Source of the DNA: Escherichia phage FL12 | Sequence record: PP400786 | DNA length: 64,000 nucleotides | Strand: one strand, 5' to 3' | Part shown: positions 1 through 60,611 of the stretch, one piece after another | How the letters are laid out: every line of letters starts with the position of its first letter | Numbering within the stretch: the stretch's first letter is position 1 | Program-made: the position numbers and the translations under genes | The notes under the pieces: generated by a model | Databases searched by the model: none | What the model was told of the DNA's origin: nothing | Seen by the model: only the letters and a program-made list of their open reading frames with translations

Positions 1-43
1 ATAAATATCTCCTATTTCTAAGAGTATTTATGTTCTCAAAATA

Positions 44-115
44 TGGCCCTGGGTGGAATTGAACCACCATCTGGCGATTATGAGTCGCTTGCTTGAACCT
101 TCCAGCTACAGGGCC
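44..115 (-). tRNA. tRNA-Ile (anticodon CAU)
   Basis: Reverse complement folds as a cloverleaf: acceptor GGCCCTG/CAGGGCC, T-arm GGTGG-TTCAATT-CCACC, anticodon loop CTCATAA, 3' CCA encoded. A CAU anticodon would read Met; assigned Ile (AUA-reading, lysidine-type) from T-even phage knowledge. Confidence 0.8.
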
Positions 116-121
116 TTGATA

Positions 122-194
122 TGCTGATTGACGGAATCGAACCGCCGACGTCCTCATTACAAGTGAGGTGCTCTACCTACTGAGCTAAATCGGC
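122..194 (-). tRNA. tRNA-Thr (anticodon UGU)
   Basis: Cloverleaf on reverse complement: D-arm GCTC-AGTAGGTA-GAGC, anticodon stem CCTCA/TGAGG with loop CTTGTAA, T-loop TTCGATT. One C-A mismatch in acceptor stem; CCA not encoded. Confidence 0.8.
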
Positions 195-201
195 GAAATT
201 A

Positions 202-288
202 CGGAGGCGATAGGATTTGAACCTATGAGTCGCCGGAGCGAATGCCGGTTTTCAAGACCGGTGCATTAAACCACTCTGCCACGCCTCC
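202..288 (-). tRNA. tRNA-Ser (anticodon UGA)
   Basis: 87 nt with long variable arm; acceptor GGAGGCG/CGCCTCC, anticodon stem-loop CCGGT-CTTGAAA-ACCGG, T-loop TTCAAAT. CCA not encoded. Confidence 0.85.
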
Positions 289-290
289 AG

Positions 291-364
291 TCTCCGTGGC
301 AGGATTTGAACCTACGACATTCTGCTCCCAAAGCAGACGCTCTACCAAACTGGGCTACACGGAG
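291..364 (-). tRNA. tRNA-Pro (anticodon UGG)
   Basis: Acceptor CTCCGTG/CACGGAG, anticodon stem TCTGC/GCAGA with loop TTTGGGA, T-arm GTAGGTTCAAATCCTGC. CCA not encoded. Confidence 0.8.
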
Positions 365-376
365 TAAATTAAATTT

Positions 377-448
<72 letters not shown>

Positions 449-454
449 AAACTT

Positions 455-541
455 TGGTACGAGAAGTGGGACTCGAACCCACAAGGAAATCATTCCGCAG
501 CATTTTAAGTGCTGTGCCTTTACCAATTTGACCATTCTCGC
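455..541 (-). tRNA. tRNA-Leu (anticodon UAA)
   Basis: 87 nt with long variable arm; anticodon stem CAGCA/TGCTG with loop CTTAAAA, T-arm GGGTTCGAGTCCC, 3' CCA encoded (plus-strand tgg at 455-457). Confidence 0.85.
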
Positions 542-542
542 G

Positions 543-615
543 CTGGGAATAAAGGACTCGAACCTTTGCATCTAGCAGTCAAAGTGCTATGCCTTACCAA
601 CTTGGCTAATTCCCA
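543..615 (-). tRNA. tRNA-Gln (anticodon UUG)
   Basis: Acceptor TGGGAAT/ATTCCCA, anticodon stem TAGCA/TGCTA with loop CTTTGAC, T-loop TTCGAGT. Separated from tRNA-Leu by 1 nt. CCA not encoded. Confidence 0.8.
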
Positions 616-59015: not shown

Positions 59016-59348
59016 TTATTTTACTACTTTCCAATGTTGCATGTCAAGTTTACCAACTTTTTTCATCTTCTCAATTAAACGTTCGGCACGTTGGCGAGCT
59101 GTAACATAATACCATTCACCTAATTCATTTTGTTCAATTTTTCCAACGATTACTGTATTCAATTCATAAATCCAACCAGTAAAGAAATTATGAACTTGAA
59201 TTGTAAAGGTGAAATCTGTTCCCATACCTTCTGTCGTTTCTACTTCAATAATATCACCTTCAACTGCCATTAAGAACCACATAGTTTCATTATATTTACC
59301 ATTGAAGCATTTAGTTTTAACTGCAGCGTTCAGATTAATCGTTTTCAT
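59016..59348 (-). CDS. Hypothetical protein (30.8 position), 110 aa
   Basis: ATG preceded by AAGGAGA; early promoter upstream. Confidence 0.6.
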   Translation of the reverse strand: MKTINLNAAVKTKCFNGKYNETMWFLMAVEGDIIEVETTEGMGTDFTFTIQVHNFFTGWIYELNTVIVGKIEQNELGEWYYVTARQRAERLIEKMKKVGKLDMQHWKVVK

Positions 59349-59405: not shown

Positions 59406-59435
59406 AACTTTATGCAATCTTTGGAAAATAAAAAA

Positions 59436-59458
59436 GGACTCCCGAAGGAGTCCTCAAC
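59436..59458 (-). terminator. Intrinsic terminator after the 30.9 ORF
   Basis: Minus-strand RNA GGACUCC-UUCG-GGAGUCC followed by UUUUUUAUUUU. Confidence 0.8.
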
Positions 59459-59635
59459 TTATGCTTTCTGCTTACCAAAACGAGAAGCATCATCTCGAAG
59501 AACCGCACGTGCTCGGCGCATGATCTTCTCAACAGTTTGATTGATACGAGAGTTCGACCCACGCTTGTAACCAGCGCGTTTAGAATCACCAACTTTCTTT
59601 TCAACTGCTTTCTTTGCTTTAGCTTGTTTTGCCAT
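59459..59635 (-). CDS. Small highly basic protein (30.9 position), 58 aa
   Basis: MAKQAKAKKAVEKKVGDSKRAGYKRGSNSR..., Lys/Arg-rich; an upstream in-frame ATG at 59677 would give the 72-aa form shown in the track. Confidence 0.55.
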   Translation of the reverse strand: MAKQAKAKKAVEKKVGDSKRAGYKRGSNSRINQTVEKIMRRARAVLRDDASRFGKQKA

Positions 59636-59771
59636 TATAAATTCTCTTTTAAATGAAAATGCAGGACTTATTGGCATTGCCTGCGCAAGCCCTCAAGGGG
59701 AACATAGGTTTTTGGATATTTAACGACCAGGATAACCATAAACCCGTCATCATTCACATTCAAGAGGTACA

Positions 59772-59836
59772 CCGTAAAACTGTCGGGGTCTTAAAACTAT
59801 AATGATTCGCAAATCATTAATCAGACAGTTCGACGG
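59772..59836. other. Nested inverted-repeat element in the rIII - 30.9 gap
   Basis: Perfect palindrome TAATGATT-CGCA-AATCATTA (59800-59819) nested inside imperfect 13-bp inverted arms CCGTAAAACTGTC (59772-59784) and GACAGTTCGACGG (59824-59836). Confidence 0.6.
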
Positions 59837-59879
59837 CTCCTCGATTTAGCTCACACTAAGGCAGTGAATCTCCAATAAA

Positions 59880-60128
59880 TTACTTCAATGTTACCACAAA
59901 GTGACGAACTGCTTTTCGTGCAGCAGAAGCCAGAGGCTTAGCATATTTAAGTTCATCTTTTTCCTGAAGCTCAGCAGCTAATGCAGTTTGAGCAGGATTC
60001 AGATGTTTGAAATAACGCAGGATTTCAAGAGCTTCGGCTTCAACATCAATAGATGCGCCATAGTTTTCGTGACCATTATTCCATGCGTTTCGTTGCAGTT
60101 CAAGAGCGTGTTGTAATTGTTTAATCAT
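59880..60128 (-). CDS. rIII: rIII lysis-inhibition accessory protein
   Basis: 82 aa, begins MIKQLQHALELQRNAWNNGHENYG; position next to gene 31. Confidence 0.85.
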   Translation of the reverse strand: MIKQLQHALELQRNAWNNGHENYGASIDVEAEALEILRYFKHLNPAQTALAAELQEKDELKYAKPLASAARKAVRHFVVTLK

Positions 60129-60275: not shown

Positions 60276-60611
60276 TCACTTATAAAGACACGGAATAGCT
60301 TTATAGTGACAGGTAACGAATTTTTGTTTAATTTCTTTTGGCTGCTTAAGACCCAGAGCTACAAAAGGGTGTGGAACGTTTCGAATTTGACCAACTGGAA
60401 GAGAAGTCAAATCACCAACTTCACAGAAACCTTCAGGAACATCAGGACCAACAGAGTGAACTACACACAGTTCAGGAACTTCACCTTGAACACGTTTACC
60501 GATAATAAGTCCTGATTCTGTAACTTCTTCATCACCGGCTTGTGCAGGTTCAGAAACTAAAATAACATATTCACCGACAGCACGAATTGGTAGCTGTTGT
60601 ACTTCAGACAT
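60276..60611 (-). CDS. 31: Gene 31 co-chaperonin (GroES-like)
   Basis: 111 aa, begins [22 protein letters not shown]; middle promoter upstream. Confidence 0.9.

Follow-up and report, generated by a model that had tools for sequence, protein, structure and literature searches.

Between the genes rIII and 30.9 of Escherichia phage FL12 (record PP400786), within the 64,000-nucleotide stretch analysed here and referred to as the window, lies a 244-nt gap (59636-59879) that matches phage T4 at 100% and contains an 89-nt hairpin, module B, which is very probably a selected RNA structure of the sense strand. Module B represents a new, well-supported RNA family, of a general kind that is already familiar (structured intergenic phage RNA), and sequence comparison indicates that it is an accessory RNA cassette, which illegitimate recombination has carried between virulent coliphages that are unrelated to each other. 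The gap as a whole is a chain of independent selected RNA structures; it is neither a promoter nor a canonical terminator, and neither a decayed gene nor a DNA cruciform. The minus strand, which carries all genes at this locus, is the sense strand for both rIII and 30.9. A first interpretation made from the letters of the window (the sequence-only reading) had placed the gap between these two genes, in agreement with the T4 reference AF158101.6, in which 30.9 ends at the equivalent of window position 59635, rIII begins at 59880 and no feature is annotated in between.

Fold and covariation of module B

Module B consists of four helices, P1 to P4 (Table 1). P1 and P2 are separated by a 1 x 3 loop (A opposite GUA), P2 and P3 by a C.U mismatch, and P3 and P4 by a 4 x 15 internal loop (UGAU opposite UAGUUUUAAGACCCC); the capping tetraloops of the homologues include UGCG, UACG, UAAG and similar sequences. 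The fold takes in the nested inverted repeat that the sequence-only reading had singled out, and a repeat search recovers both of its parts: the perfect 8-nt arms around a 4-nt centre that form P4, and the outer 13-nt arms (59772-59784 and 59824-59836; 85%). The minimum free energy (MFE) of module B is -26.5 kcal/mol, compared to -15.5 +/- 2.8 in 200 dinucleotide shuffles (z = -3.97, 0/200 as good), and folding the whole gap on the minus strand, a check suggested at the outset, gives z = -2.65. When taken alone, the module B of each lineage folds to the same shape, with a thermodynamic signal in four lineages.

Our comparison comprises 31 matches, corresponding to 24 distinct sequences from T4-likes, rV5-like and phi92-like phages, Kuraviruses and metagenomes, all of which fit one architecture. 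In the hand alignment, 97.9% of the cells are paired and 12 of the 28 base pairs display double-sided changes, whereas sliding the 3' partners by 1-3 columns reduces pairing to 26-66%; a model-based alignment gives otherwise the same result, with 22-63% in the slid control. The compensatory changes affect every helix: A-U to G-C in P1; G-C to A-U within the T4-likes and C-G to U-A in Kuravirus in P2; two extra base pairs, present on both strands of P3, in the rV5-like and Kuravirus copies, so that this helix varies between 8 and 10 base pairs; and swaps of UAAUGAUU/AAUCAUUA to UAACAAUC/GGUUGUUA or UAUCGAUU/AAUCGGUA in P4. The paired arms, whose conservation the sequence-only reading had made the touchstone of its proposal, are kept with compensatory changes across four phage lineages.

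Sequence constraint is unevenly distributed along the rod. The basal half (GGAGCYGUCGAA ... UUUUACRGUGUACC), including two G.U pairs, the C.U mismatch and the 1 x 3 loop, is almost invariant, and the distal half covaries freely. Two variants depart from the common form: the RPN187/C6 subtype carries a 5-nt insertion in the conserved loop, and a 45-nt 'mini-B' in KBNP1711 and the Salmonella S16-like phage UTK0003 keeps the basal helix alone, with the loop gone. Model R1 finds a single copy of module B in the window (116 bits).

The pairing data also discriminate between the strands. Among the module B cells, G.U outnumbers A.C by 73 to 7, two G.U pairs are invariant, and pairing falls from 97.9% on the minus strand to 86.4% on the plus strand. 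This asymmetry argues that the structure holds on the minus strand and thus in RNA, or at least in the sense strand, and not in a DNA cruciform. A DNA-level site, that is, a cruciform or protein-binding palindrome serving replication, recombination or packaging, would be in keeping with the presence of the repeats on both strands and with the plus strand of module B folding well (z = -3.63). However, we consider it very unlikely: both invariant G.U pairs and all 73 G.U cells would be C.A on the other strand, the conserved large asymmetric loop and bulges are not needed by a cruciform, and the orientation relative to transcription is fixed in every genome. Of the three options that had originally been offered for the repeat, the two RNA readings (a structured 3' untranslated region (UTR) or a small RNA) are hence supported, whereas the DNA-level site is disfavored by the G.U/A.C asymmetry. 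Module B may be either an element of the 3' UTR that acts in cis or a discrete small RNA.

Signals and genes excluded from the gap

Promoters were searched for as the T4 late box TATAAATA, or as a MotA box (TGCTTNA) on the transcribed strand, 11-13 nt ahead of a -10 element. The gap contains no T4 late or middle promoter and no sigma-70-like site; as the sequence-only reading had stated, there is no TATAAATA (the nearest sequence being a 7/8 match, TATAAATT, on the plus strand at the gap edge, 59636-59643) and no MotA box on the sense strand. Given that the gap has no promoter, module B is read through from upstream in T4. For module B, an intrinsic terminator was rejected as well, since no U-run directly follows the stem on its 3' side; here, too, the terminator and promoter scans agree with the initial view that the nested hairpin is neither a standard promoter nor a standard terminator. 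Neither ARAGORN nor the Rfam tRNA model identifies a tRNA in the gap or in the corresponding gaps of relatives. A covariance search against RNA families, which had been recommended, returned no Rfam 15 match inside the T4 gap even at E <= 10, and nothing was found over B, A1 or I155 (two further modules, see below) in 12 related loci at E <= 1-5. Several motifs considered by eye (k-turn, loop-E/sarcin-ricin, hammerhead (CUGAUGA...GAAA), hairpin ribozyme, CRISPR-repeat mimic and anti-Shine-Dalgarno mimic) were discarded as misfits or as unconserved across families.

Could the gap be a decayed or unrecognised small protein gene? Open reading frames (ORFs) of 34-72 aa are annotated over it in relatives (wV7, G3F7 and phage 132), and T4 itself has ORFs of 34 and 49 aa. 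However, the annotated ORFs use TTG/GTG starts in frames that differ by record, the 34-aa ORF of T4 has no Shine-Dalgarno sequence, module B of T4 contains stops in all six frames with no open frame shared across families, and the ORFs in A1 and A2 are shifted by 1-nt indels. The annotated small ORFs are not credible genes, and a coding origin of the gap is correspondingly remote. The sequence-only reading had also taken the gap for the longest ORF-free stretch of the window, a description that better suits the tRNA cluster at 44-615, which is longer and likewise has no protein ORFs.

Distribution and conservation of module B

A homologue of the gap is present in ~770 phage records. Between T4 and its Mosigvirus and Dhakavirus relatives, module B is 92-99% identical, A1 98-100% (96-100% against the relatives whose flanking genes are at 77-89%) and A2 93-100%, compared to 77-95% (77-89% in most) for gp31, rIII and 30.9. 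In these alignments, no part of the locus is better conserved than the non-coding blocks, a pattern suggesting that constraint at the nucleotide level is stronger here than in the flanking genes. Module B is co-oriented with its neighbors in every case, starting 8-36 nt past a stop codon in the T4-likes examined and ~7 nt past one in Kuravirus.

Outside the T4-likes, module B occurs at ~80% identity in three unrelated groups. The rV5-like carriers W70, A73, A5-4 and LTH01 form a small subgroup of the Vequintavirinae, and the W70 operon is found at >=80% coverage in 6 records only. This operon comprises a sigma-70 promoter (TTGACA-17-TAAGAT), a ~130-nt leader, module B, a non-canonical tRNA 13 nt downstream of it, tRNA-Met and a homologue of T4 rnaD. 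In phi92 and two phi92-like contigs, module B lies between tRNA-Gly and tRNA-Gln. Among the Kuraviruses, part of the group (172-1, SU10 and others) carries it in the order upstream gene, module B, intrinsic terminator, terminase gene.

The rV5-like operons provide two further observations. The non-canonical tRNA is a 79-nt tRNA-like gene scoring 35.8 bits with the Rfam tRNA model (gathering threshold 29), which ARAGORN and the annotators missed; similar sequences, sometimes labelled 'tRNA-OTHER', are present in Felix O1-like, Klebsiella and jumbo phages. The rnaD (species 2 RNA) homologue of W70, LTH01 and A73 directly follows tRNA-Met; by blastn, it is 87-89% identical over the 5' part of rnaD (nt 10-53 in W70 and A73; 1-53 in LTH01) and 92-96% identical over nt 95-119. 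Separately, some records labelled as Campylobacter or Pseudomonas phages (H273, H300 and others) match T4-like or rV5-like coliphage sequence at >=97% and are probably mislabelled or contaminated deposits.

Module B is missing from some members of each carrier group. EcNP1-type T4-likes have neither Z (the module next to rIII) nor B, and phiEco32 shows a clean absence; Kuraviruses that do not carry B keep the same terminator-terminase arrangement. In T4-likes of Klebsiella and Serratia, Z directly adjoins I155, an arrangement that makes B look like an insertion that took place in the lineage of E. coli phages. We found no match to module B in 5,426 E. coli genomes at E <= 1, nor in 185,579 bacterial and archaeal species genomes. 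Host origin or mimicry was rejected: the three relaxed-pattern matches in the species genomes are due to chance, and none fits model R1.

Junctions and mobility

The phi92 copy bears marks of its arrival. It is a T4-type segment of ~98% identity, circularly permuted and flanked by the 13-nt repeat TTTATTGGAGATT, in the order TTTATTGGAGATT - Z-B-A1-A2 - ATGG / AAAAAGATGAA ... last 85 nt of rIII ... TAA - TTTATTGGAGATT - tRNA-Gln. The second copy of the repeat provides the first 8 nt of tRNA-Gln. At the internal junction, the start codon of 30.9 is fused to the 3' end of rIII at a GG.AAAA microhomology, and the 42-aa 'rIII' protein of phi92 (PHI92_gene_113) is composed of the 30.9 start codon and the last 26 codons of rIII. 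This footprint fits the expectation for a small circle or tandem duplication in a T4-like phage, followed by integration at the 13-nt microhomology. Experiments have demonstrated such small circles in T4-type phages (PMC2839356). The Kuravirus presence/absence junction displays microhomology alone (AGGGAG vs AGGGGAG).

These junctions would also be compatible with a selfish or neutral palindromic DNA cassette, whose hairpin is kept for mobility or by the recombination machinery and brings no benefit to the phage: presence and absence are clean, the microhomologies (AGGGAG/AGGGGAG in Kuravirus, 13 nt in phi92) mark the boundaries, a mini-circle intermediate like those shown for T4-type phages (PMC2839356) would account for the permuted order in phi92, and natural T4-likes live without module B. 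We regard this explanation as improbable. The window has one copy and the host genomes none, there are no terminal repeats or target duplications beyond the microhomology, and the helices are maintained by compensatory changes inside recipient lineages, e.g. between 172-1 and the gut Kuravirus L040. In addition, the G.U asymmetry points to RNA, and module B is conserved above its neighboring genes.

Candidate functions of module B

For module B, we favor a function in cis through RNase III-type processing, to which we assign a probability of roughly 0.35-0.4. In T4, the gap is transcribed together with rIII from the minus strand; in the favored scheme, a host factor common to all carrier phages would recognize module B. 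The module would then act on its own transcript, combining double-strand-specific (RNase III-type) processing with a hairpin that stabilizes the 3' end, and thereby uncouple the RNA on its upstream side (that of rIII, of the gene preceding the Kuravirus terminase, or of the rV5-like leader) from the RNA on its downstream side (30.9, terminase or tRNAs). A covarying hairpin in A2 may end or attenuate the unit just before the 30.9 ribosome-binding site. This proposal is based on the rod architecture, the fixed sense orientation, the position after stop codons or before tRNAs, and the restriction to enterobacterial phages. P1-P3 provide ~17-20 stacked pairs below the asymmetric 4 x 15 loop and the capped 8-bp P4, an architecture of stacked pairs below a loop plus a capped helix that is shared by the T7 RNase III sites and lambda sib. 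Module B has the form of a T7-type RNase III site, being an intercistronic, sense-oriented hairpin that is irregular, spans about two helical turns and contains an internal loop. All of its carriers infect enterobacteria and, as we take it, use host RNA polymerase and host RNases.

Several points weigh against this proposal. When model R1 was run over the whole T7 genome with filters off, the best hit reached 11.6 bits (E = 0.74), and none fell on a known site. The near-invariance of the basal helix and the loop exceeds what RNase III needs and better fits a sequence-specific protein or a tertiary fold. In the rV5-like phages, module B resides in a promoter-driven operon of stable RNAs (tRNAs and the rnaD homologue) with no upstream mRNA to stabilize, a setting that fits an RNA gene at least as well. 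Part of the high conservation could stem from local gene conversion, as 30.9 is visibly mosaic. Finally, we found no transcript ends or cleavage data for the locus in the T4 transcriptome literature.

Almost as likely, though likewise tentative, is a function in trans as a stable small non-coding RNA cut from the rIII 3' UTR or from tRNA operons; this RNA would consist of module B with or without A1 and A2. Such an RNA might titrate a host protein or RNA, for instance as a decoy for an RNase or a defence system, or base-pair with targets via its UAUAGUUUUA loop. The sigma-70-driven non-coding operon of W70, A73 and LTH01 would suit this function; in phi92, processing of tRNA-Gly and tRNA-Gln would free the RNA in between, and the Kuravirus terminator right after module B would supply a 3' end. 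The nearly invariant loops and basal helix, conservation above that of the flanking genes, and an accessory, laterally transferred distribution resembling that of anti-defence genes point in the same direction. On the other hand, module B has no promoter of its own in T4 and Kuravirus, the literature documents no discrete transcript, and the genomes searched contain no similar host sequence. The 5-nt insertion in the RPN187/C6 loop is awkward for a fixed seed, and the mini-B copies are without the loop altogether.

We considered it still less probable that module B is a put-like processive antitermination or pause element, in which the nascent hairpin binds host RNA polymerase and promotes read-through of the next terminator. 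In support, module B is sense-oriented in all cases and precedes a terminator or a hairpin resembling one (before the terminase in Kuravirus; A2 hairpin 2 before 30.9 in T4), its carriers presumably rely on host RNA polymerase, and a sequence-specific basal helix is suited to protein recognition. However, tRNAs rather than a terminator follow it in the rV5-like phages, Kuraviruses devoid of module B have the same terminator and terminase layout, and no antiterminator RNA in Rfam resembles it; the argument is one of position only.

Other modules of the gap

The gap is a mosaic of separable modules, and relatives differ by whole blocks, not by scattered decay. In the RNA sense, the T4 gap reads Z, B, an indel hot spot, A1 and A2 (Table 1). 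Z is present in T4, wV7, Mosigvirus and S16-like phages and absent from RPN187, C6 and EcNP1. In phi92, the T4-type segment is inserted at a microhomology formed by the first 13 nt of Z, TTTATTGGAGATT (59867-59879). Beyond the shared TGGAGATT, Z (GCCTTAGTGTGAG) loosely resembles, by eye, the D-arm region of phi92 tRNA-Gln (GCCTAGTGGGAAG) and could be the remnant of a tRNA 5' half or a chance likeness.

The hot spot is filled by ~45-51 nt in wV7 and Mosigvirus, and by the ~155-nt structured I155 in G3F7 and many other Tevenvirinae. T4 does not have I155. In the Tevenvirinae of Klebsiella, Enterobacter, Citrobacter and Serratia (402 records), conservation of this module is 82-93%, and it shows compensatory changes (CCCGA/UCGGG to CUCUA/UAGAG; UAUACA/UGUAUA to UAUUCA/UGAAUA). 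I155 matches nothing in Rfam and displays neither 3-periodicity nor a conserved ORF; it probably constitutes an RNA family of its own that has not been described before.

A1 is a hairpin whose 11-nt loop, UUUAUGGUUAU, is nearly invariant. Its stem has changed from GAC/GUC to GGC/GCC, and is GUGG/CCAC in the Klebsiella and Serratia phages KpV477 and Muldoon; a one-nt bulge switches strand by subtype (GACG-GG/CCUGGUC vs GACGAGG/CCU-GUC). The MFE of A1 is not significant (z = +0.33). A1 is found next to module B in the rV5-like LTH01, but not in W70.

A2 contributes two hairpins, the first of which is conserved in all Tevenvirinae compared. In the second, the stem reads GAACUGG/CCAGUUC in the S16-like UTK0003, and KpV477 and Merlin have GGGAGC/GCUCCC in its place; a U-rich tail comes after each version, shortly before the 30.9 ribosome-binding site. 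These comparisons suggest that A2 hairpin 2 may serve as a weak terminator or 3'-end hairpin. The terminator scan passes over its 5-bp stem because the loop exceeds 8 nt. The sequence-only reading had also pointed to a second, GC-rich near-palindrome; a repeat search does return one (59679-59690), but it is not conserved as a palindrome and is incidental. It represents a junction taking in the 5' arm of A2 hairpin 2: its 3' half is that arm and belongs to a separate covarying hairpin.

Two alternative pairings were dismissed. The MFE alternative for A2, AGGGCUUG with UAAGUCCU, is broken by UTK0003 changes that compensate in GCAGG/CCUGC. A long-range helix closing Z onto A2, seen in the MFE fold of the whole gap, is broken by Mosigvirus changes, and RPN187, C6 and EcNP1 have no Z.

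Locus and annotation

The 58-aa reference start of 30.9 competes with an in-frame upstream ATG at 59677 that would give 72 aa (59459-59677, minus strand), the form annotated in some relatives; we prefer the reference start because the extension is out of frame in RPN187 and UTK0003. The 30.9 protein is very basic. It was rejected as a known RNA-binding partner, as it belongs to no Pfam family and matches only PHROG families of unknown function. The intrinsic terminator with a UUCG loop after 30.9 is the true end of the unit. A sub-threshold Rfam match to the Rhizobiales small RNA Atu_C8 (59420-59503, minus strand; 31.4 bits vs gathering 50, E = 3.7e-4) spans the 30.9 3' end and this terminator, recurs in relatives and is most likely driven by the terminator.

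Compared to AF158101.6 (window 1-615 vs 70908-71918), the coordinate offset varies across the 59 kb between the tRNA cluster and rIII, and the window therefore comes from a T4 isolate with at least one indel of ~1 kb relative to the reference. Literature searches, T4 transcriptome papers included, revealed no described transcript, processing site or motif at the rIII-30.9 locus; expression of rIII and 30.9 was reportedly the subject of work by Driukas and Nivinskas in Biologija in 2003, a reference cited in PMC9409239.

Table 1. Coordinates of module B, the other modules and the neighboring genes. Positions are those of the window unless preceded by an L number, which denotes a related sequence.
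Feature	Position	Strand	Details
Module B	59760-59848	-	89-nt four-helix rod-shaped hairpin holding the nested inverted repeat; fold, covariation
P1 of module B	59839-59842 with 59764-59767	-	GAGG/CCUC
P2 of module B	59833-59837 with 59771-59775	-	GCCGU/ACGGU
P3 of module B	59824-59831 with 59777-59784	-	8-10 bp across homologues
P4 of module B	59812-59819 with 59800-59807	-	8 bp; tetraloop UGCG in T4
Conserved 15-nt 3' internal loop of module B	59785-59799	-	
Circularly permuted T4 segment in the phi92 lineage	L001 3001-3345; also L012, L018	-	
tRNA-Gln of phi92	L001 2934-3008	-	
79-nt tRNA-like gene	L006 2417-2495; L005 2394-2472	-	
rnaD homologue	L006 2223-2314; L005 2198-2298; L025 1216-1307	-	
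Module Z	59849-59879	-	spacer right after the rIII stop; fold not significant (z = +0.57)
Indel hot spot between B and A1	59753-59759	-	alignments; empty in T4
I155	L002 ~880-1020; also L034, L037, L039, L043 701-823, L044 701-819, L045 701-830	-	~135-155 nt
Module A1	~59700-59755	-	hairpin and conserved A-rich tail; stem UGAUGAC/GUCGUUA plus GG/CU, ~59721-59752
Module A2	59636-59700	-	
A2 hairpin 1	59690-59700	-	CCC-UUGA-GGG; conserved in Tevenvirinae incl. Klebsiella, Citrobacter and Serratia phages
A2 hairpin 2	59651-59684	-	GCAGG 59680-59684 with CCUGC 59661-59665, 14-nt loop, then U-rich AUUUUCAUUU 59651-59660
gp31	60276-60611	-	
rIII	59880-60128	-	
30.9 ribosome-binding site and start codon	AAGAG 59644-59648; start codon 59633-59635	-	AF158101.6
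30.9	59459-59635	-	58-aa reference start
Intrinsic terminator after 30.9	59434-59455	-	UUCG loop; terminator scan
30.8	59016-59348	-	

Relation to known systems and significance

Module B resembles four known systems and fails a defining test for each of them. The RNase III hairpins of T7 (R0.3 to R18.5) and lambda sib are recognized by a host enzyme and separate or stabilize neighboring RNAs. Like these elements, module B is an irregular sense-strand hairpin with an internal loop in the intercistronic or 3'-untranslated RNA of E. coli phages. Unlike the T7 sites, to which it has no similarity in sequence or structure, it features a larger 4 x 15 loop and an invariant basal helix, and is common to unrelated phage families. 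REP/BIME, ERIC and Correia elements as well as rRNA intervening sequences are transcribed mobile hairpins of ~90-150 nt that act in mRNA stability or are excised by RNase III, and are multi-copy and chromosomal. Module B is likewise a transcribed mobile hairpin insert of sporadic distribution; in contrast to REP-type and miniature inverted-repeat transposable elements, it is single-copy, confined to phages and free of terminal repeats or target duplications, with microhomology alone at its junctions.

The T4 genes rnaC and rnaD (species 1 and 2) encode stable RNAs 'of yet unknown functions' (PMC9697503). Module B is similarly small, structured, non-coding and co-transcribed with other genes, and shares an operon with the rnaD homologue in rV5-like phages; however, in T4 it lies outside the tRNA operon, and it has no tRNA-like 3' end. 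A blastn comparison of B, A1 and I155 with T4 rnaC and rnaD yields only 8-10-nt chance words. The PeSL cassettes of T4-type phages combine a sigma-70 early promoter with a terminator stem-loop, occur many times per genome and form mini-circles (PMC2839356, PMC4122927). With these, module B has in common that it is a short non-coding intergenic cassette at points of indels and swaps, where recombination between short repeats yields small circles, and a mini-circle of the PeSL type would explain the circularly permuted T4 segment in phi92. Unlike the PeSL cassettes, module B has neither promoter nor U-tract and is present once in 64 kb.

Although no phage is more thoroughly annotated than T4, its reference record leaves this interval without a feature, and many related genomes carry spurious small ORF calls over the RNA modules described here. 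For databases, module B provides a new RNA family with 24 distinct sequences, four helices and 12 covarying pairs, for which RNase III processing, a host-factor decoy and antitermination are candidate functions. What sets it apart is that it is a naked RNA module common to unrelated virulent phages. It provides a concrete example of how a non-coding RNA cassette has been transferred from one such phage to another, and the phi92 copy keeps the footprint of a circular intermediate. More speculatively, and we consider this unlikely though worth stating, module B may be the first of a new class, a self-contained, laterally mobile and protein-free 'RNA moron' that virulent coliphages trade for its binding to a conserved host factor; titrating a ribonuclease or an RNA-sensing defence system would be one example. 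Across the Tevenvirinae, Z, B, I155, A1 and A2 would then form a so far unrecognized island of non-coding RNA genes, part of which has been kept in T4.

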